A stretch of 64,000 nucleotides of DNA from positions 3,151 through 67,150 of the forward strand of contig CALGUK010000049.1 of assembly GCA_937920235.1 (NCBI GenBank), written 5' to 3'. A model generated the notes under the pieces. That model made no database searches and was not told where the DNA came from. It was given only the letters and a program-made list of their open reading frames with translations. Shown one piece after another: positions 29,604 through 57,956 of the stretch. How positions within the stretch are numbered: position 1 is the first letter of the stretch; each line of letters opens with the position of its first letter. The position numbers were made by a program, and so were the translations under genes. The stretch comes from an uncultured Clostridia bacterium (GTDB taxonomy: Bacteria > Bacillota > Clostridia > Oscillospirales > Acutalibacteraceae).

Positions 29604-29732
29604 AAATATTTATTTTATACAAAAACTGCTTTTAAATGTAGCAAATTTGCACAAAGTTAAATCTCACAAAAATATTCTTTTTGGTTTTATGACTGAATTA
29701 TTTGTTTTGGGTCAAAAGTCGGCGGATTTTCG

Positions 29733-41639: not shown

Positions 41640-41687
41640 TAAATAATTGATAATCCCTTCGCATAATATAGTGTGGAGGGATTTTTT

Positions 41688-42452
41688 ATGTTCTGTGCAT
41701 TGCGTATATACGAGAAAAATAAAACCATTGCCGATAAACTTTTCGGCTTTATGCTTAAGAATGAATATAAGGTTACAACTGTTCCTGTTTATAAGGCTGC
41801 ACCCTTCTTTCTGCTTGATGTAACTGTGCATAAGAAATACCCGGATGCGGAGAACATTATTTCCCGAGTCGGAAAATGTGCATTGCGTCTGGTCACGTCT
41901 TCTCGCGACAGATTACAGGGTACGGACGGGATAGGATTTTTTGAAAGCAACTTACTGTATGACAAGGTTATAAAAAATACATTTATAAAAATTCTTGAAA
42001 ATAATTTTGCAATGTTACCGACGGATTTATGTGTGATTGACACCGAGGGAAAAAATAAAGACTTTGTTATATCAGTCTGTAAATTTGCCGCCACATTATC
42101 GGTGGTGACCGAAAATAAAACCGATTATTTATCTGTTTGCGATGAAATCACGGAGCTTACCGGTATTTGTCCTGTGCTGAAAAACAAAGTGGAGAACGAG
42201 AATGTCTGTATAAATACAGATGAAAATAAAATAACTGTCATAAATCAGGATGACCGAACGGATATTCTGAAGGGAGATAAAATTATAATGCCTGATATTT
42301 ATGCCAAAATCATTCCGGAAGGAGTTCCCGAGCTTGAATTTTATTCTGCTTTGTATGAACTCTGCGGAGTGTTCGCATTGGGCGATTGCGTTTTTGAATA
42401 TATTACTGTCAATAATGAAAAAAAGCGTGTTGCGGATGTTCATTTTACTTGA
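41688..42452 (+). CDS. hypothetical protein
   Basis: 254-aa ORF with a GGAGGG RBS. I recognise no motif. Confidence 0.55.
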   Translation: MFCALRIYEKNKTIADKLFGFMLKNEYKVTTVPVYKAAPFFLLDVTVHKKYPDAENIISRVGKCALRLVTSSRDRLQGTDGIGFFESNLLYDKVIKNTFIKILENNFAMLPTDLCVIDTEGKNKDFVISVCKFAATLSVVTENKTDYLSVCDEITELTGICPVLKNKVENENVCINTDENKITVINQDDRTDILKGDKIIMPDIYAKIIPEGVPELEFYSALYELCGVFALGDCVFEYITVNNEKKRVADVHFT

Positions 42453-43027: not shown

Positions 43028-44521
43028 ATGGCAGATAACATTAAGCAGACTCAGCCCGAGGTTGATATGGGCGAACAGCAAAAAATCCGTCTTGAAAAGC
43101 TCAGAGCCTTGCAGGATGAGGGCAAAGATCCTTTTGTGATTACGAAATATGATCAGACACACCACAGTGCAGATATTAAGGATGACTATGACAACCTTGA
43201 GGGTATAACGGTACGTGTCGCAGGCCGTATGATGTCAAAGAGAGTTATGGGTAAGGCATCGTTCTGCAATATTCAGGACCTTAAAGGCAACATACAGTCT
43301 TATGTTGCACGAGACAGCATCGGTGAAGAAGAATATAAGGGCTTTAAAAAGCTTGATATCGGAGATATTATCGGTATTGAAGGCTATGTTTTCAAGACAA
43401 AGACCGGTGAAATATCAATTCATGCAACAGCGGTTACGCTTCTTTCAAAGAGTCTTCAGATTCTTCCCGAAAAATTTCACGGTCTTACAAATACCGATAT
43501 GAGATATCGTCAGCGCTATATTGACCTTATTATGAATCAGGAGTCCAAGCAGACGCTTATCAATCGTTCAAAAATTATCAGCGCAATCCGTAAGTATCTT
43601 GACGGTGAGGGCTTTATGGAAGTTGAAACTCCTATGCTTGTTTACAATGCGGGAGGAGCCGCGGCAAGACCATTTGAGACACACTTCAATGCTCTTGATA
43701 CCGATATTAAGCTTCGCATATCGCTTGAACTTTACTTAAAGCGTCTTATCGTTGGCGGTATGGAAAAGGTGTATGAAATCGGCAGAGTTTTCCGAAACGA
43801 AGGACTTGATACGCGTCATAATCCGGAATTTACTCTTATGGAGCTTTACCAGGCTTATACAGATTATCACGGTATGATGGATCTTACCGAAAATCTTTAC
43901 CGTTTTGTTGCTCAGGAGGTTCTCGGAACAACAAAAATTACATTCAATGGTATTGAAATGGATCTCGGCAAGCCGTTTGAAAGAATTACAATGCTTGATG
44001 CGGTTAAGAAGTATTCCGGCGTTGATTTTAATGAAATTCATTCAACTGAAGAGGCTCATGCAGTTGCGAAAGAGTATCATGTAGAGTTCGAAAAACATCA
44101 TAAAAAGGGTGACATTCTCAATCTTTTCTTTGAAGAATTTGTTGAAGAACATCTTGTTCAGCCGACCTTTGTTATGGATCATCCGATTGAGATTTCACCG
44201 CTTACAAAGAAAAAGCCTGAAGACCCCGATTATGTTGAACGTTTTGAATTCTTTATGAATGGTTGGGAGATGGCCAACGCATATTCCGAGCTTAACGACC
44301 CCATTGACCAGAGAGAGCGCTTCAAGGCTCAGGAGGAGCTTCTCGCTCTCGGAGATGAGGAGGCTAACACAACAGATGAGGACTTCCTCTATGCACTTGA
44401 ACTCGGTATGCCGCCAACGGGAGGCATCGGATTTGGTATCGACCGTATGACAATGCTGCTTACCGACAGCCAGGCAATCCGTGATGTAATCCTCTTCCCC
44501 ACAATGAAGCCCATCGATTAA
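43028..44521 (+). CDS. lysS: lysine--tRNA ligase (class II)
   Basis: OB anticodon-binding domain plus class II motifs (FRNEG..., [14 protein letters not shown]). Confidence 0.97.
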
Positions 44522-44618
44522 GAAAAATTACTATTTGCAAGGGATTCGCGGTGTGCTCAATTGAATTTACCCACGATTTACCCGTTATGACAAATTAAAG
44601 AAAGGCTATACATTTTAA

Positions 44619-44661
44619 ACCCCGTTTTTGCAATTTGCAGAGACGGGGTGTTTGCTTTTTT
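44619..44661 (+). terminator. rho-independent terminator after lysS
   Basis: Hairpin accccgt / acggggt with a long loop, followed by TTTGCTTTTTT. Confidence 0.6.
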
Positions 44662-44680
44662 ATAGCCATATTTTGTTTTC

Positions 44681-44749
44681 TTGCAAAAACGCAGGGAAAA
44701 TCTGCAATTTTGCTATTTACTTGCTATTGAAAACGGGTTATGATAAAAT
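44681..44749 (+). promoter_or_regulatory. activator-type promoter with phased TGCAA repeats upstream of the LytTR operon
   Basis: TGCAA cores at 44682 and 44703 (21-bp phase). CTGCAATTTTGC at 44702-44713 and TATTGAAAACG at 44725-44735. Extended -10 TGATAAAAT at 44741-44749. No good -35 element. Confidence 0.5.
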
Positions 44750-44793
44750 TAAAATAAGATATATTTCTTTTTTAGGCGAATAGGAGCTGTGTT

Positions 44794-45492
44794 ATGAAAA
44801 TACTTATCTGTGATGACGAAGTCAGATATATAAATGACCTGCGCAGGTATATTGAGGAATATATGAAAAACCACGGTATCGCCTGTGAGATTGATACAAC
44901 TACCGTGCCCAATGAAATAACAGATAATAATGTCGTTTATGATTTAGTGTTTCTTGATATAAGAATGCCGAATTTTGACGGAATTGACCTCGCCTATGAG
45001 CTGAAAGAACGAAACAGCAAGGTTGTTATATTTTTTGTTACTGCGTTCAATGAATATCAGGATGCAGCAATGGATTTACAGGTTTTCCGATTCTTTGAGA
45101 AGCCCTTTGATGCAAAACGATTATTTTCCAGTCTTGACAAAGCTATGGAATATATTGACGGCTCATATGTTGAAGTGTTTGTATATAACAATAAGGAACA
45201 CAAGAGAATTCTTGTCGATGATATAGTTTATATTGAAAACAGAAGCAGAAAAACGCATATCTACACACAGAAAAGTGAAATGATTGTCCGTGATTCTATT
45301 GACGAGTGGACAGAAAAATTGCCTACAACCTTCTTTTTCCGTGTTCATAAATCCTTTCTCGTTAACCTTCATTATGTTACAAAGTACAGTTATGAGGAGC
45401 TTTATCTTAACGAAAATATAAGAATCCCTGTTGCCACAAGAAAGCAGGCGGATTTTCATAAGGCCTGGTTCAGATATCTGAAAAGGAGATAG
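44794..45492 (+). CDS. LytTR-family response regulator
   Basis: Receiver domain (LICDDE..., phospho-acceptor context LVFLDIRMP) plus a LytTR DNA-binding domain (FFRVHKSFLVNLHYV). Confidence 0.93.
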   Translation: MKILICDDEVRYINDLRRYIEEYMKNHGIACEIDTTTVPNEITDNNVVYDLVFLDIRMPNFDGIDLAYELKERNSKVVIFFVTAFNEYQDAAMDLQVFRFFEKPFDAKRLFSSLDKAMEYIDGSYVEVFVYNNKEHKRILVDDIVYIENRSRKTHIYTQKSEMIVRDSIDEWTEKLPTTFFFRVHKSFLVNLHYVTKYSYEELYLNENIRIPVATRKQADFHKAWFRYLKRR

Positions 45493-45495
45493 AGA

Positions 45496-46776
45496 ATGTT
45501 TTTAGCTTTTTCATTTGCTTATTTAACAGAGTTTATATCAGCACATATTTTGTTTTCTTCAGCTGCAGAAAAGAAATATAAATCAGGAAAATGCTTTTTA
45601 ATAGGAGCAATTTTATTCGGAATAAGCATAATTATATGTTTTGTTGTCAGAAAGTTTACCTGGATTAATTTGATTATATACCTTATAATTGATATTTTAT
45701 ATGCTTATCTATGCTTTGATATGGGGATAAAAAAATCCATATTATACGGAACAATAGTTACACTTATAGGTGTAATATGGGAGGTGTTTGTTGAAATAAC
45801 GCTGTTATCAGTAACAGGTGCTGATTCCGAAGAATTACTGACAAGTGTGCTCGCTGTATCGATATGTTCTTATATAAGTAAAATGCTTTTGTTTATATCA
45901 GTATTGATTTTGTCAAGATTTGTCGCAAAAAATGATGCAGTAAAACTACCGGTGTCTGTCACTATCTATCCGATTGTGCTGATTATTGTCCTTTTAGCCT
46001 TTTGGGAGGTGTGTGAGAAATGTCAAGTGAACTCAACAGGGCAGCTTGCACTGGCAATTACCGCTGCAGGTCTTATTATTCCGACGGTGCTTTTCTTTTT
46101 GATTTACCAAAGAAATATTGAAAGAGAAAACGAATTGTTCTGTTTGAAAAAAGAAATGGATAAAATTGAAACGGAAAAGAGTTATTACGATATTCTCGAT
46201 AAGCAAAATCAGAACTTAAGAATATATGTCCATGATACTAAAAAACATCTTGCCGCAATAAAAAGTCTGAATACGGATCCGCAAATTGAGAAATATCTCA
46301 ATAAAATAACTGAAAATCTTGCTACATACAGCAAAGTCAGTCGCAGCGGTAATCACTCGTTTGATGTTATCATCAACAGATATGTTACGGAATGTGCAAT
46401 CAAAAAGCTTAACTTTACGTTTGATACAAGACTTAAAAATCTGGAATATATTGAGAATTATGACCTTGTGACCATACTCGGAAATCTGCTTGATAATGCC
46501 CTGGAATCTGCGGAGCAGTCACAAAACCGAGAAATTACTCTTTCAACGGATTGCAGAAACGGTTATGATGTTTTGATTATTACAAACAGTTGTGATATTG
46601 AACCAAAATCTCTGAATAATAAGCTGATTACAACAAAAGCTGACAAAAAGCTCCACGGTATCGGACTTAAAAGTGTTGCAAAAACATTATTAAAGTATAA
46701 CGGAGATTTCGACTGGGATTATGATGAGCAAAATAAAATTTTTACGGCAACCGTTATGATGTCGGAGGTAAAATAA
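45496..46776 (+). CDS. multi-pass sensor histidine kinase (HPK10/AgrC-like, GHKL ATPase)
   Basis: About 6 TM helices, a coiled coil, an H-box YVHDTKKHL, an N-box LGNLLDNALES and a G-box HGIGLKSV. Confidence 0.9.
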   Translation: MFLAFSFAYLTEFISAHILFSSAAEKKYKSGKCFLIGAILFGISIIICFVVRKFTWINLIIYLIIDILYAYLCFDMGIKKSILYGTIVTLIGVIWEVFVEITLLSVTGADSEELLTSVLAVSICSYISKMLLFISVLILSRFVAKNDAVKLPVSVTIYPIVLIIVLLAFWEVCEKCQVNSTGQLALAITAAGLIIPTVLFFLIYQRNIERENELFCLKKEMDKIETEKSYYDILDKQNQNLRIYVHDTKKHLAAIKSLNTDPQIEKYLNKITENLATYSKVSRSGNHSFDVIINRYVTECAIKKLNFTFDTRLKNLEYIENYDLVTILGNLLDNALESAEQSQNREITLSTDCRNGYDVLIITNSCDIEPKSLNNKLITTKADKKLHGIGLKSVAKTLLKYNGDFDWDYDEQNKIFTATVMMSEVK

Positions 46777-46777
46777 T

Positions 46778-47626
46778 ATGATTTATATTGTCGGTTTAGC
46801 AACTTCATATTTTGTTGAAGCTCTGTCGTCCTATATATTATTTTCACACGTCGGTGAAAAAAGGTTTAAATCCGTATATTGCTTTCTGATTGGCACAGGT
46901 CTGCATTCCCTCGGCATGTTTATCAATTTGTTGGGCAAGAATAAGATATGGATAAATTTAATTGCCTTTTTGATCATTACCGTTATATTCGGTATGCTTG
47001 CATTTAAAATCAATTTTAATATGGTTTGCTTATACTCTGTATTTATTGTTGCTATTTGTACATTCTGCGAAATGTATATGGAAATGCTCATTACCTCTGT
47101 TACGGATATGCAAATGCAAAGCTATCTGACGAGCGATATGGTAATGGTTGCGTTAGTTATATTCGGTAAAGGGTTTTATTTAATCAGCATACTGCTGATG
47201 TCAAGACTCATAAAACGGGAAAACCGTGTTAAATTACCCTTGGTTATGTTTCTTTACCCCATTTCTGCTTTTTTATCCTTTGCAGTCATCTGGTATGTGT
47301 GCAGATATTGCAATGTCAATTCTTACGGCAAGCTTGTTCTGTCAACAGTTATGATGCTGCTTTTTGCTGTGGTTGTATTTCTGCTTTTTTCTTACCAGAA
47401 AGGTATTGAGAGAGAAAGCAAACTGCTTGAACTCAAAACACAAATTGAAAAATCAGAAACGGAAAAAACATATTACAGCATCATTGAAAAGCAAAATGAT
47501 AATCTTATTTCTTATGCAGACGATACGCAAAAGCATCTTAAAGCAATAAAAATGCTTAATTCCGATCCGCAGATTGATGAATACATCAATAAGATGCTTG
47601 CAAGTCTGGATGAATACGGTAAATAA
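46778..47626 (+). CDS. truncated paralog of the upstream kinase (sensor TM domain + dimerisation helix; no ATPase domain, His replaced by Asp)
   Basis: Collinear similarity to kinase residues 1-~280. The aligned H-box reads YADDTQKHL. The ORF ends right before the position of the N-box and is followed by a terminator. ATG lies 1 nt after the kinase stop. Confidence 0.75.
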   Translation: MIYIVGLATSYFVEALSSYILFSHVGEKRFKSVYCFLIGTGLHSLGMFINLLGKNKIWINLIAFLIITVIFGMLAFKINFNMVCLYSVFIVAICTFCEMYMEMLITSVTDMQMQSYLTSDMVMVALVIFGKGFYLISILLMSRLIKRENRVKLPLVMFLYPISAFLSFAVIWYVCRYCNVNSYGKLVLSTVMMLLFAVVVFLLFSYQKGIERESKLLELKTQIEKSETEKTYYSIIEKQNDNLISYADDTQKHLKAIKMLNSDPQIDEYINKMLASLDEYGK

Positions 47627-47631
47627 AAATC

Positions 47632-47667
47632 ACCCTCGTTTCCTTATGGCGACGAGGGTTTTGCTTT
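47632..47667. terminator. bidirectional terminator between the kinase paralog and the XRE gene
   Basis: Hairpin accctcgt / acgagggt, with T-rich runs on both strands. Confidence 0.75.
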
Positions 47668-47863
47668 ATTCAATTATAAATAAATCGCCGGGCAAACAGT
47701 CAAAAATTTTGCACAGCTTTTCTATGGTTTCAAGCTGTAAGCCGGTTAATGTGTTATCGCAGAGCTTGTTGACGGTTTTATATGTCGTCTGCATTTCCTT
47801 TACCAGCCAATATCTTGTTTTACCTTTTTTATCAAGTAAATTCTGAATATTCATTTTAATCAT
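47666..47863 (-). CDS. XRE/Cro-type helix-turn-helix transcriptional regulator
   Basis: 65 aa. The segment KTRYWLVKEMQTTYKTVNKLCDN...LETIEKLCKIFDCLPGDLF is typical of short HTH_26/XRE proteins. AGGTGA RBS. Confidence 0.85.
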   Translation of the reverse strand: MIKMNIQNLLDKKGKTRYWLVKEMQTTYKTVNKLCDNTLTGLQLETIEKLCKIFDCLPGDLFIIE

Positions 47864-47910
47864 AATATATCACCTAATAAATTGTAACATTAGTATATCT
47901 GAAATATAAT

Positions 47911-47939
47911 CAACCAAACGGTAGTGTACCAAGTGGTTG
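47911..47939. promoter_or_regulatory. 29-bp imperfect palindrome (candidate XRE operator)
   Basis: CAACCA-nnn-GGTA-nnn-TACC-nnn-TGGTTG. The right arm overlaps the -35 element of the + strand promoter. Confidence 0.4.
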
Positions 47940-47965
47940 ACTATTTTGCTTTTCTGTGATAATAT
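47937..47965 (+). promoter_or_regulatory. near-consensus sigma-A promoter facing the S8/LRR genes
   Basis: TTGACT, a 17-nt spacer, then TGATAATAT (extended -10). Confidence 0.5.
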
Positions 47966-48050
47966 GTCTTTAGAGGTAAAAGATGCACTTTTTTAAGGAT
48001 TGTCCGGCCGAAAAGTGAGGTGAACTCGTTAAGGAAAAATTTTTATTGTT

Positions 48051-48123
48051 TTCCTGCAATTTTACTTATTTTTTCTGCAGTTTTGCAGGGGATATTTTAT
48101 TGAAAACGATAATTTGATATAAT
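48051..48123 (+). promoter_or_regulatory. activator-type promoter with 21-bp phased CTGCA(A/G)TTTT direct repeats (candidate LytTR site)
   Basis: CTGCAATTTT at 48054-48063 and CTGCAGTTTT at 48075-48084. TATTGAAAACG at 48098-48108. Extended -10 TGATATAAT at 48115-48123. The layout matches 44681-44749. Confidence 0.5.
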
Positions 48124-48166
48124 CGATTCAAAGAGAAATCAGATTATATATGAGGAGGAAATTATT

Positions 48167-51100
48167 ATGAAGAACAAAGTAAAAAGTCTGATAAGCATCT
48201 TACTTTCTTTGACTATTCTTATGGTTTCTGTTCCTGCTGTTTCACTTTTCTCCTTTGCGGAGGAAATCGAGGCAGGTGACGACCTGGAAGAATTTTCCGA
48301 GGATGTAACAAATCTTATCAGAGATGCCGGGTTAACAACTGATGAAAATGACTTGTATGTGTCCGCGGCTTCCGATACCGATGAAGCCGATACAAGTTAT
48401 GAGTATCAGACGGCAAGACTTATTGTTAAGTCAAAAAAGAAAATCGACAAGCTCAATGCCGTTGCCGTTGCAGACGGCTATGAGGATCTTCACATTTTGC
48501 AGTTTGCAACACCCGAGGATGCTCAGAAGGCTTGCGAATACTATCTTACATTGGATTATGTCGAATACGCTCAGCCCGACGGGATAGTTGAAGCTGCCGA
48601 TTATGAGGTAGTGAATGAAACACAGTCTATTGAAGATATCATTGCAGAGAAACCCGATCTTGAAAAGCCTGCAATTCAGGTAGGTATCAAAGCTCTTAAA
48701 GAATTTCTTGTGTCATCTGGCATTACGTTTACGAGAAAAATTGAGGTCGCCGTTGTTGATACGGGTGTGGAATCCACTCACAGTCTTCTGAAAGATCGTG
48801 TTGAACCTACAGGAAAGAATTTTTCTTCAAACGGAGCTGCAAATTCTTCTGAGGACAATAACGGTCACGGAACTCACGTTGCCGGTATTGTTGCGGTGAA
48901 CTCTCTTTCAAATGTAAAAATCAGACCGTATAAGGTTCTTGACGGTGCAGGAAGAGGAACGGATATTCAGATAGTCCTCGGCGTTGAGGCGGCAATATCC
49001 GACGGCGTTGAGGTTATAAATATGAGCCTCGGAAGAAGAGGAACAAACAGAGCCTTGCACGACTCCGTAAAAAAAGCAGTTGCAAAAAACATTGCCGTTG
49101 TTGTTTCGTCGGGTAATGATTTTGCAAATCTGGACAACATCAAATATTCACCTGCAAGCTTTCCGGAATGTATCACGGTTATCGCTCACGGTGCAAACTG
49201 CACGGGAAATACTTTTTCAAACTACGGTGCAGTATGCGATATAGCGGCACCCGGTGTGAATATTTACAGCTCTTATCTCAGAAATACATACAGAAATATG
49301 ACGGGTACATCAATGGCAGCACCTCTCGTAGCCGCCGCGGTAACTTACGTTATACTCAGCTATCCCGGTATTACTCCGGATGAAATCAGCGAAACCTTAA
49401 AAATGCATGCTATTCCCGAGGCTAATGCCTCATATTCAACCGCAATGTGTCTGTATATGGAGTTCATTACTCGCAGTGTGGATAAATTGTCTGCTCCCAT
49501 ATTCAGCATAGAGAGCAAAGAGTTTGACATTCCGTTCATGCTGACTCTTTCATCGTCCGATGAAAATGTAACGATATACTATACAAGGTCTGAATTCAGT
49601 GAAGGGTATTACGAGAAATATACAGAGCCTATTCCCATCAGAAACAGTACAACTGTCAAGGCTTATGCATATCGAAAGGGTGCAGTGATGAGTGAATTTG
49701 TTTCACATACATATTCCAAGCTGTTCCCCAACGAAGACTCCAAATACGCCATAGATGAAAACGGAACAATTATCGAATATGTAGGACAGGATACCGAACT
49801 TTTTGTTCCCGAGGTAATTCAGGGAATACAGGTAAAGGCTATCGGTGAAGAAGCATTCCGTCAGAATAAAACAGTTGAGTTTATCGTATTACCCGAATCT
49901 GTTAAGATTATCGGTGAAAAGGCCTTTGCCGAGTCCGAAAAGCTCAGACAGGTTCGTGCAACGGGTGTGGAGACGATTGACACATCGGCATTTATGCTTT
50001 GTGAATCACTTGAAAGCATTGAAGGAAATAACATTAAAAACATAGGCTCTTATGCTTTTTACGGCTGTCCAGTACTCAAATATATTGATTTCTCCAAAGC
50101 GGAAAAAATCGAAAGCTGTGCTTTTGAAAGTGCGTTGAGCATTACAAGCGTTGTTTCAGATACATTGAGTGATGTCAGCGGTACGGCATTCAGAGAGTCG
50201 GGAATAAGAATCGTGGATGTTCCGAATATGAAGAAAATTGACGTGTCAACATTTTACGGATGTGAGCTGCTTGAAAAGGTAAATGCTCCTCTTGTTACAG
50301 CAATAAACAACGACGCGTTCAACGGATGCTCGGCTCTTATTGAAATCAACGCGGAAAATCTCGAAAGCGTTGGTCGCTACAGCTTCCTGAATTGCAGTTC
50401 ACTTGAAGAAATCAATTTCCCGAAGCTTAAAGATTTCGGCGGTTTAGGACTTGAAACAAGCGATTGGGGATGCTTCAAAAACTGTGAAAGTCTTAAAAAG
50501 GTCAATTTACCGTCAGCAACCGTTCTCACGGGCTCGACATTTGACGGCTGTTCATCTCTCGAAGAAATTTCCTTGCCTAAGGCTACGGTAATACCGATAA
50601 GTCTTTTCAGAAACTGTACCGCCCTCAAAAAAGCGGATCTGCCGTCGGCTACCGAAATTTATTCACGTGCATTCGACGGTTGCACCAGTTTAAAGGAAAT
50701 CGAATTGCCGTCTGTTAAAACTGTCAGAACAAGTGCATTTTATGGCAATAATATTGAAAGACTTATTCTTCCCGTTGTTGAAACTGTTGCCGATTTGCCA
50801 TCTGGGGCTATGGTTGCAATCGGCTCCAAGGCTCGCACTATAGACAATCCGAATGCTTTCAGCAGCGGCTCGGATATAACAATTTACGGCACTGTTAATA
50901 CAAAGGCTTACGAGTGGGCAGAAACATATAAAATTCCCTTTAAAGAGATAAATCAGAATAATGCGATTCATATGAATCTCCCCCATGAGTTTGATCAGGA
51001 CAGAGAAACAGCACTTGAAGTCGGTGTTATGGGATTTAACCGTACTTATCAGTGGTACGGAAACAGTCGTGCAGACAACACGACGGGTACTGAGATTGAG

Positions 51101-51922
51101 GGCGCTGTTGATAAAACCTTTAATCCCGTAAAATATGACGAGTACCCGTACTATTATTGTGTTGTGACAAGCAAGGATAATTCATATCCTGCCGTTGAAA
51201 TACGAACCGGTGTAGCTAAGAATATACATACACATATAAAGGTGGAAATTCCACGTGTTGAACCGACTTGTGTAACGACCGGTCTCACTGCCGGAACAGA
51301 GTGTTCGCAATGCGGCAGAATTATCACACCGCAGGAAGAAATACAGACAATTCCCCATGAGTACAACGGTGTTGTAACAGCTCCGACCTGTACGGAAGAG
51401 GGTTATACCACATATACATGTAATTGCGGCAGAAACTATATCGACGATTACGTTTCCGCAAAGGGACATACGGTAAGAGAATACGGGAAAGTTCTGGAAG
51501 CCCCGAATTGTACGGAGGAGGGCAGCAAGGACAGTATTGATTATTGTGTTGCCTGTAACTGTGTCCTTGAACGAAAGGTTATAACAATGCCGGCTCTCGG
51601 ACATACTCCCGGTAAAGCAGTTGAAGAGAACCTTGTGACACCCACCTGTGAGGAAACGGGCTCAAAGGATATCGTCATCTGTTGTTCACACTGCAAGGAG
51701 GAAATCAGTCGTGAAACAGTAACTCTGGAAATGCTTGGCCACAGCGATGATGACGGTGACGGCTATTGCGACGGATGCGATAAGCTCCTCGATGTAACGG
51801 TTGAATGTGACCATAGCTGTCACAAGGGCGGTATTTCAGGATTTTTCTGGAAAATCACGCTTTTCTTCAGCAAGCTTTTCGGCACTAACAGAGTTTGCGA
51901 ATGCGGAGTGGCGCATTATTGA
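48167..51922 (+). CDS. secreted S8 subtilisin-like protease fused to BspA-type leucine-rich repeats and a Cys/His-rich C-terminal module
   Basis: Signal peptide and an I9-like propeptide. Catalytic residues D (VAVVDTGV), H (HGTHVAG) and S (GTSMAAP). One chitobiase/Fn3-associated-like domain (VTIYYTRSE...TVKAYAYRKG) and about 18 LRR_5-type repeats. Four CxxC-type mini-repeats and the terminal CHKGGISGFFWKITLFFSKLFG motif. Confidence 0.9.
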   Translation: MKNKVKSLISILLSLTILMVSVPAVSLFSFAEEIEAGDDLEEFSEDVTNLIRDAGLTTDENDLYVSAASDTDEADTSYEYQTARLIVKSKKKIDKLNAVAVADGYEDLHILQFATPEDAQKACEYYLTLDYVEYAQPDGIVEAADYEVVNETQSIEDIIAEKPDLEKPAIQVGIKALKEFLVSSGITFTRKIEVAVVDTGVESTHSLLKDRVEPTGKNFSSNGAANSSEDNNGHGTHVAGIVAVNSLSNVKIRPYKVLDGAGRGTDIQIVLGVEAAISDGVEVINMSLGRRGTNRALHDSVKKAVAKNIAVVVSSGNDFANLDNIKYSPASFPECITVIAHGANCTGNTFSNYGAVCDIAAPGVNIYSSYLRNTYRNMTGTSMAAPLVAAAVTYVILSYPGITPDEISETLKMHAIPEANASYSTAMCLYMEFITRSVDKLSAPIFSIESKEFDIPFMLTLSSSDENVTIYYTRSEFSEGYYEKYTEPIPIRNSTTVKAYAYRKGAVMSEFVSHTYSKLFPNEDSKYAIDENGTIIEYVGQDTELFVPEVIQGIQVKAIGEEAFRQNKTVEFIVLPESVKIIGEKAFAESEKLRQVRATGVETIDTSAFMLCESLESIEGNNIKNIGSYAFYGCPVLKYIDFSKAEKIESCAFESALSITSVVSDTLSDVSGTAFRESGIRIVDVPNMKKIDVSTFYGCELLEKVNAPLVTAINNDAFNGCSALIEINAENLESVGRYSFLNCSSLEEINFPKLKDFGGLGLETSDWGCFKNCESLKKVNLPSATVLTGSTFDGCSSLEEISLPKATVIPISLFRNCTALKKADLPSATEIYSRAFDGCTSLKEIELPSVKTVRTSAFYGNNIERLILPVVETVADLPSGAMVAIGSKARTIDNPNAFSSGSDITIYGTVNTKAYEWAETYKIPFKEINQNNAIHMNLPHEFDQDRETALEVGVMGFNRTYQWYGNSRADNTTGTEIEGAVDKTFNPVKYDEYPYYYCVVTSKDNSYPAVEIRTGVAKNIHTHIKVEIPRVEPTCVTTGLTAGTECSQCGRIITPQEEIQTIPHEYNGVVTAPTCTEEGYTTYTCNCGRNYIDDYVSAKGHTVREYGKVLEAPNCTEEGSKDSIDYCVACNCVLERKVITMPALGHTPGKAVEENLVTPTCEETGSKDIVICCSHCKEEISRETVTLEMLGHSDDDGDGYCDGCDKLLDVTVECDHSCHKGGISGFFWKITLFFSKLFGTNRVCECGVAHY
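51602..51922 (+). repeat. 321-nt 3'-terminal module, paralogous copy 1
   Basis: Gap-free alignment with 57291-57611. 78 of 106 residues are identical by my hand count, and 31 of the last 36. Confidence 0.85.
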
Positions 51923-51971
51923 TACTGCCGAAATAAAAAGTGCGTTATTATTAGAATTGGAGATGAGATTT

Positions 51972-54900
51972 ATGCGGAAAATTCATAAATTTTTATCAGT
52001 TATTCTGACAATTGTGATGACATTATCCGTTACTCCTGTTACTGCAAGTGCTGCAGGAGGTGCTTGCGGAGCGAATTTGAAGTGGAATTATAATACTTCT
52101 ACATATATTCTTACAATCACAGGTACGGGCGACATGGCTAATTACAGCTATACAAATCGTCCTTGGGAAACCTATGAGGATAAAATTAAAGAGGTTGTTA
52201 TTGCAGACGGGGTAACGTCAATAGGTGCATATGCATTTTACAGCTTCGGCAAGGTGACGAGCATTACAATACCTGACAGTGTTACAAAAATCGGTGCTAC
52301 GGCATTTAATGCCTGTAAAGCTCTTGTTAATATAGACCTTCCCGATGGTATTACGGAAATTCCGAACCGTGCATTCACAAATTGCACTGCTCTTGAGAAT
52401 ATTACAATCCCTTCAAATGTTAAAACGATCGGAGCTTCGGCTTTTGAAGGCTGTTCCGCTCTGACCTCGGTTACGATTCCCGACGGTGTAACAACAATTG
52501 AGGCAAAAGCGTTTGCATCCTGTAAGGGACTTACGGGAATTATGATTCCGGCGAGTGTTACATCGATAGATTGTTCGGCTTTTGAAAACTGTGTCGGCTT
52601 TTCCGGTGTGGTTATAGATGAAAAGAACCCGAACTATTCAAGCGACGCTTTCGGTGTGCTTTTCAACAAGGATAAATCAGAGCTTATTGCATATCCTACA
52701 GGAAATACATCAACAAGCTACACGGTTCCCGACAGCGTCAGAACAATAGGAGCAAGTGCTTTTAAGGGACAGATATATCTTACCGATGTTACGGTTGGGG
52801 AACATGTGATAACCATTGAGGATTACGCTTTTTACGGCTGTTCGGCGCTTAAAAATGTGTCGTTTGAGGGCGAGAAAAATGCCCTTGAGGATATCGGTCA
52901 ATATGCGTTTTCCGAATGTGACAGCCTTTCTGCCGTAACACTTCCGAAAAATGTCAGAACGATCCGTACAAATGCGTTTGCAAACAGCGACAACCTTGCA
53001 CAGATTTCACTTCCTGCAGGCTTGAAGGTGCTTGAAAGCGATGCATTTATCGGAACGGCTTTATACAGCGATGAAGAAAACTGGAAAAATGATATACTGT
53101 ATATTGATGGTTGCGTAATAACAGCGAAAACCGAGCTGTCTGATACCGTTCAGTTCGAGGACGGCACAAAACTGATTGCGGATAATGCATTTAACGGCTG
53201 TGTGGGAATTACAAGTGTAATTCTTCCTGAGGGAATAACATCAATCGGAAACAACGCTTTTTCGGGTTGCTCAGGACTGACGGATATAACAATGGCCGTA
53301 ACAATAAACTCCATCGGTGACAGCGCCTTTTCGGGATGTTCATCATTAAAGGAGGTTTACTATTCGGGAACGGCTAAACAGTGGTTTGAGATTTCTATAG
53401 GAGTTCAGAATCAGCCGTTGACATCTGCAGCCTTTCTCACGGGTCCCGGCGGAGAGGCAATTGTTGTTACCGGCGGATATATGGGAGATATCAAATGGTT
53501 CTTTGATGAAGAAAACAATGTCCTGACGCTTTCCGGCAAGGGAAAAACAGACGAGTTTATTTTCGGCGAGCGTCCCTGGGAGATATATGCAGATTTGATT
53601 CAGACAGTTGTTGTCGGAAGCGGCATAACCAATGTCGGCAAAAATGCTTTCAGAAATCTTCCCAAGCTTTCAAATGTAATTCTTCCATATGGTATGATGT
53701 CAATTGAAGAGAATGCTTTTGCAAATTGCAATTTGTTAAACGATATTCTTCTCCCAAAATCCCTGAGATATATCGGAAACAGCTCTTTTTCAAACTGCTC
53801 GTCTCTCGAGGCCATAAACCTTGAACTTATCACCGAGGTAGGTATGATGGCCTTCTCGGGATGCACCTCGCTGAAAGAAGCAAACTTCGGTCCGATTACA
53901 ACACTCGGAAATTCGGCATTTTACGGATGTACAAGCCTGACCGGTGTAACTTTCGGTAAATACCTGGGCTCAATCAAGTATTCAATGTTTGAAGGCTGTG
54001 ACAAGCTTGAGAAAATTACGGTTGACAGTGAAAACGAAACCTATATGAGTGACGAACACGGTGTGTTGTTCAGTAAGGACGGAACAGAGCTTGTTCTGTA
54101 TCCTATGGGCAATGCTGAAAAGACATATTCATTACCTGACAGCGTAATCAGAATCAAGAAGGATTCATTTGACGGAACGAAAAATCTTCTCACATTAAAT
54201 TTTAATAAGAATTTACAAAAAATCGAAGAGAGTGCCTTTGATGCGTGCAGTATTACCGAATTCTGTTATCCCGGTACAATTGAACAATGGGAAGAGAAGG
54301 TAACTGTCGGTACAAATAACAGCAATCTCAGCGGCGAGACTCTTACACTCATGCCATCTGACCTGGAGGCACTTACGGGTAAATGCGGAGATGATGTTTT
54401 CTGGACACTTAATGCATACACGGGTGATATGGTTATCTCGGGTACGGGACCGATGTATGATTATGCTTCAGACGAAGCGCGTCCTTGGGAAAGATACTTA
54501 ACTGCTATAACAAATATCGTGATCGGTGATGGTGTAACATCTGTCGGTACGGATGCATTTTCATACGGTAACAGAATTGAGAGCGTTACAATCGGTAATG
54601 ATGTGAGTGTAATCGGTGATTATGCTTTCTATGAGTGTTCGGCTCTTAAAAAGGTGACATTCGGAGAGAGCGTAACATCAATCGGAAGACATGCATTTTA
54701 TTCTTGTGCAGAGCTTAAAAGTCTCAATCTTCCGGACAGCTTAACAACTATCGGAATTTCCGCTTTCTTTCTCTGTGAGGGTGTTACGGAAATTGCAATA
54801 GGTAAGGGACTTGTCTCTTTCGCGGCAAATACGTTTGCACGGTGCACAAGCCTAGAAAAGATAACGGTTGACAGTGAAAACCCGAATTTTTCAAGCGACA

Positions 54901-57611
54901 GCTTCGGTGTATTGTTTAACAGGGAAAAAACAACTCTTATTAAATATCCTGAGGCAAATTCCTTAACTGTTTATACAATTCCCGATTCCGTAACGACAAT
55001 TGATGCAAACAGCTTCTTATGTGCGGCAAAGCTTACGGAGATTATAATTCCTGACGGAGTTACAACCATCGAAGAGAGTGCTTTCAAGGAGTGCTTCAAC
55101 CTTAAAACCGTTGAAATACCAGCATCTGTAACAACAATTAAGAACCAGGTGTTCAATAATTGCGTTATGCTTGAAAAAATCGTAATTCCGGATGGTATTA
55201 CAACAATCGGTACACAGATGTTTTACTATTGCGGTCAGCTCAAGGAAATTATTATTCCCGAAAGTGTAACATCTGTAGGCAAACAGGCATTTACATCCTG
55301 CTCATCTCTTAAGGATGTTTATTTCAAGGGAACACAGCAGCAATGGTCGGCTATATCCGTAGCAAATAACAATCAACCTCTCATTGATGCAATAAAGCAT
55401 TTTAATTACGGAGACGGTGATTTTTCGTATGTTGTTATTTCCGAAGAGGAAAAAACCGCTAAAATCATAGGCTATAATGTTTCAGGACCGTCGTTGAACG
55501 TTATAATACCGAAAACCATTGATGGCTATACAGTCATAGAGTTTGACGAAACCATATTTAAAAATCTCGATTCGCTTACAAGCGTCAAAATTCCTGACAC
55601 CGTGGTGAAAATAGGAGACGGTGCATTTTATAATTGCGGTAATCTTGCCGATATCAGTATTCCCGAAAGCATCGTATCAATAGGTGAAAATGCCTTTGCT
55701 TTCTGCGACAAGCTCACAACGGTGATGATGGGTAAAGGTGTAGAAACGATCGCGACAGGAGCATTCAACGGATGTAATGCGTTGGCAAATGTTTATTATA
55801 CGGGAACTCAGGAGCAATGGAATTCCATATCCGTTGGTCAGAACAATCAGCCGCTTTTAAATGCCACAGTACATTTTGAATACGGCGAGCTCGACTCTGT
55901 TTCGGGTACCTGGGGTGATAATATCACCTGGACACTTGATTTTTATTCCGGTGTATTAACTTTTTACGGCGACGGAAAAATGAAGCTGAATTCGGGCTCA
56001 TACAACTTCCCGTGGCACAGCTATAAGGGATCGGTAAAAGAGGTTGTTATATCTGACGGAATAACATATATCGCTCCGGGCACATTCTACTATTTTACAA
56101 ATCTTGAGACCGCTACCATTGCGGGAAGTGTCAAAACAATTGAAGGACATACATTTGAATACTGCAACCGGCTTGAAAAGGTAACGCTTTCCGACGGTCT
56201 GGAAAAAATCGGTTTATATGCATTCAGAAACTGTTCAAAACTTGAAAAAATAGTTATTCCGAACAGCGTAACCGTAATCGGAGATTCAGCTTTTGAGAAT
56301 TGCAAGGAGCTTACAAGTGTTAAACTCAGCGAAAACATTACGGAAATAGGCTCATGTGTGTTTTATGAATGTAATAAGCTTAAAGAGATAAACATTCCGG
56401 AGGGTGTAACAATAATCGGTGAAGCAGCATTTTATAGTTGTGCATCTCTGACGGAACTGACAATTCCCGAAAGTGTTACGTCAATTCAAAAGGATGCGTT
56501 TGCATATTGCAAGGGAATTGAAACCGTGACGATGGGCGCAGGAGTAAAGGAAATTCTCAGCAGTGCATTTTATTACTGCATCAGCATAAAGGATGTTTAT
56601 TATTCAGGCTCACAAGCTCAATGGAAAATGATCAGTATAGGTACAAGAAATGAAGACCTCACAGATGCGACTCTTCATTGTCTCGGAGCTGAACATCCGC
56701 ACGAATTTGCAGTTGTTGTAACAGAACCCACTTGTCTTAAACAGGGATATACAACATACATCTGCGAATGCGGATATGAGTATGTTGACGATTATGTTGA
56801 GGCATTGGGACACGATTATATTGAGGTTGTAACAAAGCCTACCTGCACAAAAGAAGGATACACAACATACACTTGTTCAAGATGTGCTGACAGTTATGTT
56901 TCCACCAAACCCATTAACCCGACGGGACATACCTTTGTGTCTGAAATCGTAACAGCTCCGACTCATCTTGCTGAGGGTGTTGAAAAGCTTGTGTGCAGTG
57001 AATGCGGTTATTCCAATACAAAACCCATTGAAAAATTACCCGAGCACACTTATGAAGCAACGGTTACGGTACCGACCTGCACCGAGCAGGGCTATACGAC
57101 ATTTACCTGTGCCTGCGGAGATACCTATGTCGGTGACTATGTTCCTATGAACGGACACACGGTTGAAAAATTCGAGAGCATAATTTCGGAACCCGGCTGT
57201 ACGGACGACGGAATCAAAGAGATTGTGTCCGTATGTACCGTTTGTAACATGGGATTGGGTACGGAAATTATCGTAACTCAGGCACACGGTCATACTGCCG
57301 CGGATGCGGTTGAAGAAAACTGTGTTGCACCTACCTGCGAATGTGCAGGCAGCAAGGATGTTGTAGTATATTGCAGTCTTTGTGACAGTGAGATAAGCCG
57401 TGAGACAGTTACTATTGAAGCAACGGGCCACGCAGATAACGACGGTGACGGATACTGCGATATGTGTAATGAACTTCTTGACCCGACGGTTGAATGTAAC
57501 CACGGCTGTCATAAGGGCGGCATATCGGGATTTTTCTGGAAAATCACACTTTTCTTCAGTAAACTTTTCGGAACAAACAAAGTATGCGATTGCGGTGCTC
57601 TGCATTATTGA
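51972..57611 (+). CDS. giant secreted BspA-type leucine-rich repeat protein with the same Cys/His-rich C-terminal module
   Basis: ATG 51972 lies 9 nt after a GGAG RBS. The ORF opens at 51801, but that part overlaps the upstream gene. Signal peptide VTPVTASA-AG, five LRR super-repeats, six Cys-rich mini-repeats and the terminal motif. Confidence 0.88.
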   Translation: MRKIHKFLSVILTIVMTLSVTPVTASAAGGACGANLKWNYNTSTYILTITGTGDMANYSYTNRPWETYEDKIKEVVIADGVTSIGAYAFYSFGKVTSITIPDSVTKIGATAFNACKALVNIDLPDGITEIPNRAFTNCTALENITIPSNVKTIGASAFEGCSALTSVTIPDGVTTIEAKAFASCKGLTGIMIPASVTSIDCSAFENCVGFSGVVIDEKNPNYSSDAFGVLFNKDKSELIAYPTGNTSTSYTVPDSVRTIGASAFKGQIYLTDVTVGEHVITIEDYAFYGCSALKNVSFEGEKNALEDIGQYAFSECDSLSAVTLPKNVRTIRTNAFANSDNLAQISLPAGLKVLESDAFIGTALYSDEENWKNDILYIDGCVITAKTELSDTVQFEDGTKLIADNAFNGCVGITSVILPEGITSIGNNAFSGCSGLTDITMAVTINSIGDSAFSGCSSLKEVYYSGTAKQWFEISIGVQNQPLTSAAFLTGPGGEAIVVTGGYMGDIKWFFDEENNVLTLSGKGKTDEFIFGERPWEIYADLIQTVVVGSGITNVGKNAFRNLPKLSNVILPYGMMSIEENAFANCNLLNDILLPKSLRYIGNSSFSNCSSLEAINLELITEVGMMAFSGCTSLKEANFGPITTLGNSAFYGCTSLTGVTFGKYLGSIKYSMFEGCDKLEKITVDSENETYMSDEHGVLFSKDGTELVLYPMGNAEKTYSLPDSVIRIKKDSFDGTKNLLTLNFNKNLQKIEESAFDACSITEFCYPGTIEQWEEKVTVGTNNSNLSGETLTLMPSDLEALTGKCGDDVFWTLNAYTGDMVISGTGPMYDYASDEARPWERYLTAITNIVIGDGVTSVGTDAFSYGNRIESVTIGNDVSVIGDYAFYECSALKKVTFGESVTSIGRHAFYSCAELKSLNLPDSLTTIGISAFFLCEGVTEIAIGKGLVSFAANTFARCTSLEKITVDSENPNFSSDSFGVLFNREKTTLIKYPEANSLTVYTIPDSVTTIDANSFLCAAKLTEIIIPDGVTTIEESAFKECFNLKTVEIPASVTTIKNQVFNNCVMLEKIVIPDGITTIGTQMFYYCGQLKEIIIPESVTSVGKQAFTSCSSLKDVYFKGTQQQWSAISVANNNQPLIDAIKHFNYGDGDFSYVVISEEEKTAKIIGYNVSGPSLNVIIPKTIDGYTVIEFDETIFKNLDSLTSVKIPDTVVKIGDGAFYNCGNLADISIPESIVSIGENAFAFCDKLTTVMMGKGVETIATGAFNGCNALANVYYTGTQEQWNSISVGQNNQPLLNATVHFEYGELDSVSGTWGDNITWTLDFYSGVLTFYGDGKMKLNSGSYNFPWHSYKGSVKEVVISDGITYIAPGTFYYFTNLETATIAGSVKTIEGHTFEYCNRLEKVTLSDGLEKIGLYAFRNCSKLEKIVIPNSVTVIGDSAFENCKELTSVKLSENITEIGSCVFYECNKLKEINIPEGVTIIGEAAFYSCASLTELTIPESVTSIQKDAFAYCKGIETVTMGAGVKEILSSAFYYCISIKDVYYSGSQAQWKMISIGTRNEDLTDATLHCLGAEHPHEFAVVVTEPTCLKQGYTTYICECGYEYVDDYVEALGHDYIEVVTKPTCTKEGYTTYTCSRCADSYVSTKPINPTGHTFVSEIVTAPTHLAEGVEKLVCSECGYSNTKPIEKLPEHTYEATVTVPTCTEQGYTTFTCACGDTYVGDYVPMNGHTVEKFESIISEPGCTDDGIKEIVSVCTVCNMGLGTEIIVTQAHGHTAADAVEENCVAPTCECAGSKDVVVYCSLCDSEISRETVTIEATGHADNDGDGYCDMCNELLDPTVECNHGCHKGGISGFFWKITLFFSKLFGTNKVCDCGALHY
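57291..57611 (+). repeat. 321-nt 3'-terminal module, paralogous copy 2
   Basis: Gap-free alignment with 51602-51922. Confidence 0.85.
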
Positions 57612-57650
57612 TAACACTAATACGGAAAATATTTTACCTTAAGATGAAAA

Positions 57651-57690
57651 ACGGTGTGGTACTTCTCACGGAGTATCACACCGTTTTTTA
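57651..57690 (+). terminator. rho-independent terminator after the second LRR gene
   Basis: 12-bp hairpin acggtgtggtac / gtatcacaccgt (one G-U pair) followed by TTTTTT. Confidence 0.85.
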
Positions 57691-57714: not shown

Positions 57715-57742
57715 TTGAAAATAAATATTTATATGGTATAAT
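57715..57742 (+). promoter_or_regulatory. sigma-A promoter of the small ORF/AIM24 pair
   Basis: TTGAAA, a 16-nt spacer, then TGGTATAAT (extended -10). Confidence 0.5.
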
Positions 57743-57779
57743 TTTCCTGAGGATATTTTTAAAACAGGAGTTGTGTGTT

Positions 57780-57956
57780 GTGGGTAAAGTAAAGTTAAAC
57801 GCCTCCCGTAATTACGGTATTGATTTTGCGAGAATCAAACTTTTTGAACTGTTAAAAATCAAAGAACTTTCCGTAAAATCGGTTGATTTTATCACGCGGA
57901 TCATAAATAAGAAAAATGATAGCAAAGAAAAGGAAAATTCAGATATTCTTGTCTGA
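57780..57956 (+). CDS. small hypothetical protein (58 aa)
   Basis: GTG start 9 nt after an AGGAG RBS, downstream of the promoter at 57715. The longer 57654 ORF would include the terminator hairpin and the promoter. Confidence 0.35.
   Translation: MGKVKLNASRNYGIDFARIKLFELLKIKELSVKSVDFITRIINKKNDSKEKENSDILV

Follow-up and report, generated by a model that had tools for sequence, protein, structure and literature searches.

A conserved three-gene LytTR cassette with a minimal kinase-derived pseudokinase, probably controlling two giant secreted proteins in an uncultured Clostridia bacterium

Kinase-derived pseudokinases that tune two-component systems are, to our knowledge, known from a handful of cases (RocA, FasC and DivL). 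The locus described here lies in a 64,000-nt stretch of DNA from an uncultured Clostridia bacterium (contig CALGUK010000049.1, positions 3,151 to 67,150; hereafter the window, whose own numbering is used throughout) and provides a compact, naturally minimal example: a protein made of transmembrane (TM) helices and a DHp hairpin only, in which Asp replaces the phospho-acceptor His and which is conserved, under selection and encoded in every case in an operon with its partner kinase. The conserved entity is a three-component LytTR cassette (the trio) consisting of a response regulator, a sensor kinase and this pseudokinase. In the window, the cassette probably switches on two giant secreted proteins encoded downstream (giant 1, with a peptidase S8 domain and LRR_5 repeats, and giant 2, with LRR_5 repeats) through a shared promoter motif. 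The locus also brings a readable cis-regulatory code and obvious output genes, and the cassette could be a simple model for the recycling of kinase paralogs into regulators.

A comparable layout has been described in the FasBCA(X) system of Streptococcus pyogenes, where two tandem multi-pass kinase-like proteins, FasB and FasC, are co-transcribed with one regulator and heterodimerise, residues 1-286 of FasC being sufficient and His246 required (PMC12675982). The locus shows the same gene arrangement, and in both systems one of the two kinase-like proteins behaves as a pseudokinase. The functional FasC 1-286 fragment (TM plus DHp) is built like the natural protein of 282-287 aa found here and almost matches it in length. 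FasA is of the AgrA/LytTR type. However, both Fas proteins keep the HATPase domain that the pseudokinase here lacks, FasC needs His246 whereas the equivalent residue is Asp in 8/8 pseudokinases, and the Fas output is the small RNA FasX rather than secreted-protein genes. The likeness to FasB and FasC is one of described architecture.

In group A Streptococcus, RocA is an inactive kinase-derived membrane protein that modulates a true kinase, CovS/CsrS, by direct contact (PMC6635533, PMC7028121), binding CsrS through membrane domains and raising its autokinase activity (PMC6635533). Unlike the pseudokinase described here, RocA is no tandem paralog of its partner, its gene lies apart from covRS and the protein still has a degenerate catalytic region; CovR, moreover, is an OmpR-type and not a LytTR regulator. 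Sensor-domain decoys of Bacillus anthracis, pXO1-118 and pXO2-61, are said to have been described by White et al. in J Bacteriol in 2006. They resemble the present case as stand-alone sensor-domain copies that modulate the kinase of origin, but they are soluble, lack a DHp, are plasmid-encoded and act on a sporulation kinase.

With regard to the kinase and regulator, the locus resembles AgrC/AgrA and the orphan AgrCA-like pairs of Clostridia, which share a multi-pass HATPase_c_5 kinase with an HD-type H-box, a REC plus LytTR regulator, an autoregulated promoter with two repeats phased by about 21 bp, and control of secreted or surface factors. In contrast with agrBDCA, the locus has no AgrB, AgrD or conserved small open reading frame (ORF), and it adds a pseudokinase as a third gene. 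YpdA/YpdB and other LytS/LytTR systems also use two repeats of about 10 nt with a spacer of about 11 nt, and GGCATTTCAT resembles the TGCAATTTT/TTGCATTTTT core found here (PMC4847170), but the kinase of the locus is not of the 5TMR-LYT type. The regulator is not a BtsR ortholog, since its best NCBIfam match, BtsR, reaches 64 bits where 246 are required. Finally, the LytTR Regulatory Systems of the HdrRM/BrsRM type combine a receiver-less regulator with a small membrane inhibitor (PMC6193735), in contrast to the full receiver domain and complete kinase of this locus. Every component belongs to a known family; what sets the locus apart is an unusual conserved variant of the partner, a minimal DHp-only pseudokinase without the His.

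The regulator-kinase-pseudokinase trio

The trio comprises the following genes:

44794-45492, plus strand: response regulator, 232 aa (Pfam Response_reg 3e-17, LytTR 5e-20)
45496-46776, plus strand: sensor histidine kinase, 426 aa, with a multi-pass (7-TM) membrane domain, a DHp and an ATPase domain (HATPase_c_5 3.5e-22, residues 319-422)
46778-47626, plus strand: kinase-derived pseudokinase, 282 aa, starting 1 nt past the kinase stop codon, with seven predicted TM helices and a DHp hairpin

The regulator and kinase have the marks of the LytTR-type two-component class (AgrA/ComE/YpdB) in regulator domains, phospho-acceptor Asp, kinase H-box and ATPase type. The regulator translation contains D7/D8, D55 and the Lys of FEKP, and the HD motif of the kinase (H246; consensus YxHDxK(N/K)HL) is kept in 8/8 kinases. 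Orthologs of the regulator are 75-83% identical to the window protein, with a ratio of nonsynonymous to synonymous substitution rates (dN/dS) of 0.08, and those of the kinase are 64-68% identical (dN/dS 0.14). A PDB sequence search with the kinase returned nothing relevant. An exact-sequence look-up found no record of the window regulator; the closest relatives belong to uncultured Clostridia metagenome-assembled genomes (MAGs) and Ca. Fimenecus sp.

The pseudokinase matches no Pfam or NCBIfam model and is 40% identical to residues 8-280 of the kinase (BLASTP). It stops where DHp helix 2 does, about 38 residues short of residue 319, at which the Pfam ATPase match begins, and an alignment with five full-length kinases places the end at the same point in every aligned member. 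Since it has no ATPase domain, the protein should be unable to autophosphorylate; its canonical phospho-acceptor His is replaced by Asp (Asp248 in the window, motif Y-A-D-(D/E/N)). In the AlphaFold2 single-chain model (pLDDT, the predicted local distance difference test score, 81), seven TM helices are followed by a continuation of the last one into a long helix and then a short return helix, so the predicted fold is that of a sensor plus DHp. A fold search with this model against the PDB gave only non-significant 7-TM bundles.

A homology search with the pseudokinase found 14 proteins, none with a Pfam domain; the complete ones are 282-287 aa long, and orthologs are 41-51% identical to the window protein. 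The first-pass annotation had described a tandem kinase paralog that stops before the ATPase domain. The truncation stands, but it is no one-off event, being shared by a conserved 282-287-aa family. The DHp hairpin is the best-conserved part (mean identity 74%), and the membrane region shows 48% identity vs 62% for the kinase membrane domain. Four polar intramembrane residues (E12, N58, E96 and K150 in kinase numbering) are invariant in both paralogs. With dN/dS values of 0.12-0.19 in the least diverged pairs and a median of 0.27, the pseudokinase is, on substitution patterns, a functional gene under purifying selection. Kinase homology, lost catalytic competence and maintenance by selection, which define accessory pseudokinases of the RocA-like functional class, are all found in this family. 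In a profile search of 1.84 billion representatives, the family fell into a single cluster at 50% identity, within a group of a few hundred full-length kinases; a scan of JGI metagenomes with the pseudokinase profile yielded no relatives.

A second, unrelated set of kinase-like proteins of about 295 aa also ends after the DHp, with Ser at the His position in P0178 and the His kept in P0213. Given these two proteins, loss of the ATPase domain may be recurrent in this kinase superfamily.

There is a hint, on thin evidence, of co-evolution or gene conversion between kinase and pseudokinase: the window pair alone shares Thr and Lys substitutions beside the H-box, and the membrane domains of the two L010 proteins are 54% identical, compared with 32-41% at other loci. 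As a separate observation, the synonymous divergence (dS) between L001 and L007 is 0.12 for the pseudokinase, 0.45 for the kinase and 0.74 for the regulator, a contrast that suggests recombination inside the cassette.

The genomic contexts of the trio were collected from contigs bearing the paralog and from a scan of 185,579 species genomes, which contributed four loci. Nine distinct contexts were obtained (window, L001/L007, L002/L009, L003/L004, L005/L014 with the kinase end only, L006, L008, L010 and L015), all from uncultured Clostridia, one of them named Candidatus Fimenecus sp. (L010, JAZQUC010000220). The MAGs with the trio include GCA_054271975.1, CALCTT01, CALEIS01, CALEJF01 and JAZQUC01. 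The gene order regulator (232 aa), kinase (about 427 aa), pseudokinase (about 285 aa) is found wherever upstream DNA is present, and the pseudokinase gene is always in an operon with the kinase, mostly with translational coupling. The trio occurs in a narrow lineage (4 of 185,579 species genomes), and none of the findings overturns current understanding. The neighbours of the trio in the relatives are:

L006: XRE gene (88% identical, uncalled), then an LRR_5 giant of 1917 aa
L010: second LytTR pair; LRR_5 giant of 1291 aa with the same C-terminal tail as the window giants; ortholog of giant 1, 67% identical
L003/L004: secreted GLUG protein of 689 aa
L001/L007, L002/L009, L005/L014 and L008: unrelated genes downstream
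L015: trio at the contig end, downstream region out of view

The first-pass annotation had read the two-component system, an XRE regulator and the giants as one unit. Only the three-gene cassette is conserved, and the larger unit holds just for the nearest relatives: LRR giants do stand beside the trio in the closest of them, L006 and L010, whereas four contexts have unrelated neighbours. Homologous S8-LRR genes (L011-L013) and a tail-bearing protein (L017) were found without LytTR or XRE neighbours, the very outcome that the annotation had named as counting against its proposal.

The G+C content is 33-35% across the regulator, kinase, pseudokinase and XRE genes (44500-48000), compared with 40-45% in the flanks and the giants, and the chromosomal neighbourhood of the trio differs in almost every relative. 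Given both features, the three-gene cassette may be mobile between sites.

Shared promoter boxes and the proposed circuit

Two promoters of the window carry a related pair of boxes. The elements were located as follows, partly with a position weight matrix (PWM):

44681-44693 (TTGCAAAAACGCA) and 44702-44714 (CTGCAATTTTGCT), plus strand: box pair of the regulator promoter, starts 21 bp apart (exact pattern match, PWM scan)
44721-44749, plus strand: promoter of the regulator operon, -35 TTGCTA, 17-nt spacer, extended -10 TGaTAAAAT (promoter scan)
48054-48066 (CTGCAATTTTACT) and 48075-48087 (CTGCAGTTTTGCA), plus strand: box pair of the giant promoter, starts 21 bp apart (exact match; PWM 14.1 + 18.3)
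48094-48123, plus strand: promoter of the giant operon, weak -35 (ATTTTA/TTTTAT), extended -10 TGaTATAAT (48118-48123)

The shared layout of the regulator and first-giant promoters, which had been noted before, was borne out, with the same box pair in the same register and conserved phylogenetically. The distance from the start of the proximal box to the -10 element is 43 bp at the giant promoter vs 42 bp at the regulator promoter. In seven orthologous regulator promoters, the consensus reads Y-T-G-C-A-A-A-A-n-T-G-C-A, 8 nt, C-T-G-C-A-A-T-T-T-T-G-C-A, 6 nt, TTGCTA, 17 nt and TG-n-TAGAAT; each box has 13 nt, the sequence on either side of the element is not conserved, and CTTGCTATTGA and TGATAGAAT of the regulator promoter are kept in orthologs. 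The regulator promoters of L007, L010 and L015 match the pattern though they were left out of its derivation.

The boxes are also rare. In the window, the pattern TGCARWWW-N13-YGCARTTYT occurs exactly at 44682 and 48055 only, against 0.16 occurrences expected by chance (with at most one mismatch), and a PWM scan of both strands of 258 kb found strong box pairs only at these regulator and cargo promoters. Among the cargo promoters of relatives, that of the L006 LRR giant has two perfect 16-nt direct repeats at the position of the giant-1 boxes, the L003 GLUG gene has the same box pair 42 bp before its -10 element, and the pair before the L010 LRR giant, TTGTATTTTTACC/TTGCATTTTTGTT, is degenerate.

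LytTR regulators generally recognise two repeats of 9-11 nt with 11-13 nt between them, and 21-bp phasing together with a weak -35 element is a signature of LytTR-dependent promoters (PMC4847170). The layout of LytTR-class target promoters, including the promoter of the system itself, appears at 44681/44702 and 48054/48075, at seven regulator promoters and at three to four cargo promoters, which would make all of them putative targets. Since the box layout matches the architecture of LytTR sites, positive autoregulation and regulator-dependent activation of the giant operon are both inferred.

Other assignments were discarded. TTGAAAACG, common to both promoters, falls within the promoter spacer if the extended -10 (TGnTAnAAT) is used; as a -35 element it would leave just 12 nt to TATAAT at the giant promoter, and the extended -10 fits all promoters better. 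A third box site at 29622-29651 (minus strand), in the gap after ORF 28596-29603, has one mismatch, the wrong distance to a -10 element and no minus-strand gene downstream, and is probably due to chance. CodY-, cre- or Rex-type sites, sought by eye, were rejected as the orientation of the A/T runs does not fit. A scan of metagenome DNA with the cargo-type box pair gave at least 120 loci, none encoding a relative of the block proteins, which points to chance or unrelated repeats.

A second LytTR pair, paralogous to that of the window (regulator 36% and kinase 29% identical), lies between the trio and the LRR giant of L010 (3480-5960 of that locus). It has its own related box, TACAAAATTGCAG...ATGCAGTTTGGTA, and two TGCAGTTTAG repeats lie 22 bp apart upstream of the L010 giant, so two LytTR systems may converge on one target there.

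The reading favoured here, with moderate confidence, is that the LytTR system regulates itself, has the pseudokinase as a partner and is wired locally to the giant-protein operon beside it; we infer the mechanistic steps that go beyond sequence anatomy. The 7-TM kinase would sense a signal at or in the membrane, autophosphorylate at H246 and phosphorylate D55 of the regulator, as its intact motifs and those of the regulator suggest. The phosphorylated regulator would then bind the two 13-nt boxes phased by 21 bp. Binding at its own promoter would produce positive autoregulation; at the giant promoter, with the same boxes and register and a weak -35, it would allow activator-dependent transcription of the S8-LRR and LRR genes as far as the terminator at 57.65 kb. 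The pseudokinase most likely binds the kinase, as a DHp heterodimer or through membrane-domain contacts, and tunes its output. A damping role, as negative feedback, is favoured because the operon that would produce the pseudokinase is autoinduced and because the canonical site of the protein cannot take phosphate; of all steps, whether the effect is negative or positive is the least certain.

Several points weigh against this reading. Binding of the regulator to the boxes is deduced only from their layout and conservation, and PDB fold and sequence searches were uninformative. Five residues downstream of the canonical position, both families invariably have a further His (H253 and H251 in pseudokinase and kinase, respectively). 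It could conceivably act as a phosphate acceptor, which would give the pseudokinase another role. The half-sites are quasi-palindromic (TGCA-N4/5-TGCA), and L008 keeps the palindrome through paired changes (CTACA...TGTAG), so a dimeric palindrome-binding protein or a hairpin is conceivable. The giant-1 ortholog of L010 has only a pair spaced by 11 bp, TTGTAGTTTTA/TTGTATTTTTA. No box-bearing cargo lies within 10 kb in 4/8 contexts with a visible downstream region, so adjacency to the giants is not a family property, and the S8+LRR_5 homologs of L011-L013, without LytTR or XRE neighbours, are 34-39% identical. No peptide, AgrB or exporter gene was found near the trio in the block and its flanks.

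As to the pseudokinase, a possible alternative, to which we give well under an even chance, keeps the rest of the model and makes the protein a positive co-receptor, whose fast-evolving, ligand-binding membrane domain would activate the kinase in a hetero-oligomer. RocA does raise CsrS autokinase activity by membrane-domain contact (PMC6635533), and FasC residues 1-286 suffice for Fas activity (PMC12675982). Faster evolution of the membrane domain than in the kinase (48% vs 62%) would be expected of a specificity subunit, the polar residues E12, N58, E96 and K150 are shared invariantly by both paralogs, and translational coupling (1-nt gap) suggests matched stoichiometry. However, FasC depends on the His that is Asp in all members here, and the kinase is complete alone, with sensor, His and ATPase, and needs no partner to signal. 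More speculative, and in our judgement improbable, is that the protein of about 285 aa is a natural 'split sensor', a membrane sensor plus DHp with a fixed Asp that would form an obligate hetero-oligomer with the catalytic kinase; specificity would diversify rapidly in the pseudokinase, the catalytic subunit and the regulator-DNA code staying fixed, and the Asp may mimic the phosphorylated state and gate access of the regulator. If true, this would be a mechanistically new three-component LytTR build, distinct from FasBC, with its phosphate relay via the pseudokinase His, and from RocA. A decaying, functionless gene fragment is scarcely credible. The paralog has neither of the features that kinase activity requires, and no Pfam or NCBIfam model matches it, but complete homologs are all 282-287 aa long and stop at one and the same point, the DHp segment hardly varies, dN/dS lies well under 1, and the gene is always in an operon with the kinase, mostly translationally coupled.

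The wiring to the giants has its own competing explanations. Their juxtaposition with the trio could be incidental, the giants lying outside the control of the adjacent system and the boxes being bound by another factor or representing duplicated promoter DNA. The trio does occur without adjacent cargo in L001/L007, L002/L009, L005/L014 and L008, homologous S8-LRR genes and tail-bearing proteins stand alone elsewhere, and the quasi-palindromic half-sites make the minus-strand PWM match at the regulator promoters as well. We nevertheless regard this explanation as unlikely, since the box pair tracks the regulator gene in seven genomes with different neighbours and stands, in the same register to the -10 element, before non-homologous cargo (LRR giant, GLUG protein) directly downstream of the trio; no further strong pair was found in 258 kb, and the 21-bp phasing with a weak -35 is the signature of LytTR-dependent promoters (PMC4847170). 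It is very improbable that the XRE protein, instead of the LytTR regulator, recognises the TGCA boxes and is the main switch of the giants. XRE/Cro-type proteins bind palindromes as dimers, which the quasi-palindromic boxes could accommodate, and the XRE gene, transcribed divergently from the giant operon, is retained alongside it in L006. The boxes are kept, however, at regulator promoters in at least six loci without an XRE homolog within 10 kb (tblastn), and a different, better palindrome (47903-47947), conserved in L006 and unique in the window, sits on the XRE promoter itself.

The giant proteins

The two giants and their shared module are encoded at:

48167-51922, plus strand: giant 1, 1251 aa, with signal peptide, propeptide-like region, S8, Fn3_assoc, LRR_5, Cys-rich repeats and C-terminal tail
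51972-57611, plus strand: giant 2, 1879 aa, with signal peptide, 11 LRR_5 stretches (3.5e-263), Cys-rich repeats and the same C-terminal tail
51600-51922 and 57290-57611: copies of the C-terminal module

The signal peptides were read from the translations. Giant 1 has Pfam matches to Peptidase_S8 (3.8e-44) and LRR_5 (3.1e-53), and the Asp-His-Ser triad motifs VVDTGV, GHGTHVAG and GTSMAAP are intact in the translation, consistent with an S8 peptidase. Both giants carry LRR_5 arrays in a secreted protein, the hallmark of BspA-type LRR proteins. The 49-nt spacer between the two genes is without structure (z = +0.85) and has no terminator, which makes it probable that they are co-transcribed.

The giants resemble BspA-type LRR_5 proteins and S8 subtilases of gut Firmicutes in their LRR_5 arrays (with HupY/LrrG-like partial matches), S8 triad motifs and signal peptides, and the S8+Fn3_assoc+LRR_5 architecture of giant 1 is also found in P0228, P0231 and P0232. 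They differ in their exceptional size, in the Cys-rich repeats and unannotated tail, and in the placement behind a LytTR-box promoter in this lineage. For gut microbiology, the arrangement suggests that giant BspA-type LRR proteins and a subtilase are held back by some uncultured Clostridia until a signal arrives, which bears on adhesion and on host or particle interaction.

Both proteins share Cys-rich 'PTCTE-GYTTYTC-CG' repeats and a C-terminal tail, CHKGGISGFFWKITLFFSKLFGTN-VC-CG--HY, with about 83% DNA identity over the last 120 nt; the tail consensus is C-H-CHKGG--GFFWKI--FF-KLFG-N--C-CG--HY. The module, for which there is no Pfam or NCBIfam model, had been taken as private to the two giants, but it has at least 63 database matches, including cohesin, dockerin, SLH and LRR_5 proteins. 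Seen for example in P0039, P0064, P0023, P0044 and at L017, it is widespread in secreted proteins of gut Clostridia, independent of LytTR neighbours.

No recognised anchor (LPXTG, SLH, CWB, lipobox or TM) was found in the giants by Pfam and NCBIfam, only the amphipathic, unannotated tail flanked by Cys and His. Of the signal-inducible surface protease/adhesin module proposed earlier, an inducible pair of secreted protease and LRR proteins remains the best reading, and retention of the giants at the surface is conceivable. The Cys-rich repeats and tail may be a new retention or anchoring signal.

In L006, the box promoter and a Shine-Dalgarno sequence resembling that of the window lead, at the position of giant 1, into nothing but a 5-codon ORF (MIKTV*, 3445-3462 of that locus), and the LRR giant comes next. 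The arrangement would fit the remnant of a deletion or, alternatively, the place where the S8 gene was acquired.

The XRE layer and the surroundings of the block

The remaining features of the block are:

47666-47863, minus strand: XRE/Cro-type HTH_26 regulator, 65 aa (Pfam HTH_26 1.1e-13)
47903-47947: candidate XRE operator, an inverted repeat whose 21-nt arms lie 3 nt apart, conserved with L006 and unique in the window
44619-44649, plus strand: lysS terminator and left block boundary (terminator scan; fold -22.8 kcal/mol, z = -6.4)
47632-47658: bidirectional terminator hairpin, common to the convergent pseudokinase and XRE genes (fold -17.9 kcal/mol, z = -4.5), kept in L006
57643-57692, plus strand: strong intrinsic terminator of the giant operon, then a T-run (-32.4 kcal/mol, z = -9.1), right boundary

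The gene inventory, spacings and terminators listed earlier for the block (44662-57690) were all recovered in the ORF list, the Pfam and NCBIfam scans and the folding. The block is flanked by greA/lysS on the left and AIM24/nadE on the right. Three transcription units are defined by the hairpin terminators. The trio operon has gene gaps of 3 nt (regulator-kinase) and 1 nt (kinase-pseudokinase), one promoter and one terminator.

The candidate XRE operator shares sequence with two elements, the XRE promoter of the minus strand (47932-47903) and, on the plus strand, the -35 of a promoter-like site (47937-47965). The XRE gene, palindrome and overlapping promoters are common to the window and L006, where the ortholog is uncalled, 88% identical and in the same position. 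In the simplest reading, XRE would be a local autorepressor, perhaps also gating a distal promoter toward the giants; by repressing both its own promoter and the overlapping plus-strand one, it probably forms a lineage-specific second layer of control. The gene recurs in this one relative only, and it appears to be accessory because it is absent from L010, which has a giant-1 ortholog.

The reported absence of AgrB, AgrD and an ABC exporter was confirmed by Pfam and NCBIfam in the block and flanks (40.4-61.5 kb; the rest of the window was not scanned), and no AgrB or AgrD was found next to the trio in nine orthologous contexts. An 11-codon ORF at about 47985 (MHFFKDCPAEK), which has a Shine-Dalgarno sequence, was a candidate peptide signal but was rejected, its ATG and surroundings not being conserved in L006. 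An Rfam search of 44.4-58.1 kb (E ≤ 1) gave zero matches, and hence no riboswitch or known leader.

Two further ORFs lie in the flanks. One, of 259 aa, lies between an S41 peptidase gene and greA (41673-42452) and matches no Pfam or NCBIfam model. The other, at 57715-57956 just 5' of the AIM24 gene, is a GTG-start ORF of about 58 codons without a family match, preceded by the near-consensus promoter TTGAAA-16-TGgTATAAT (11/12 matches).

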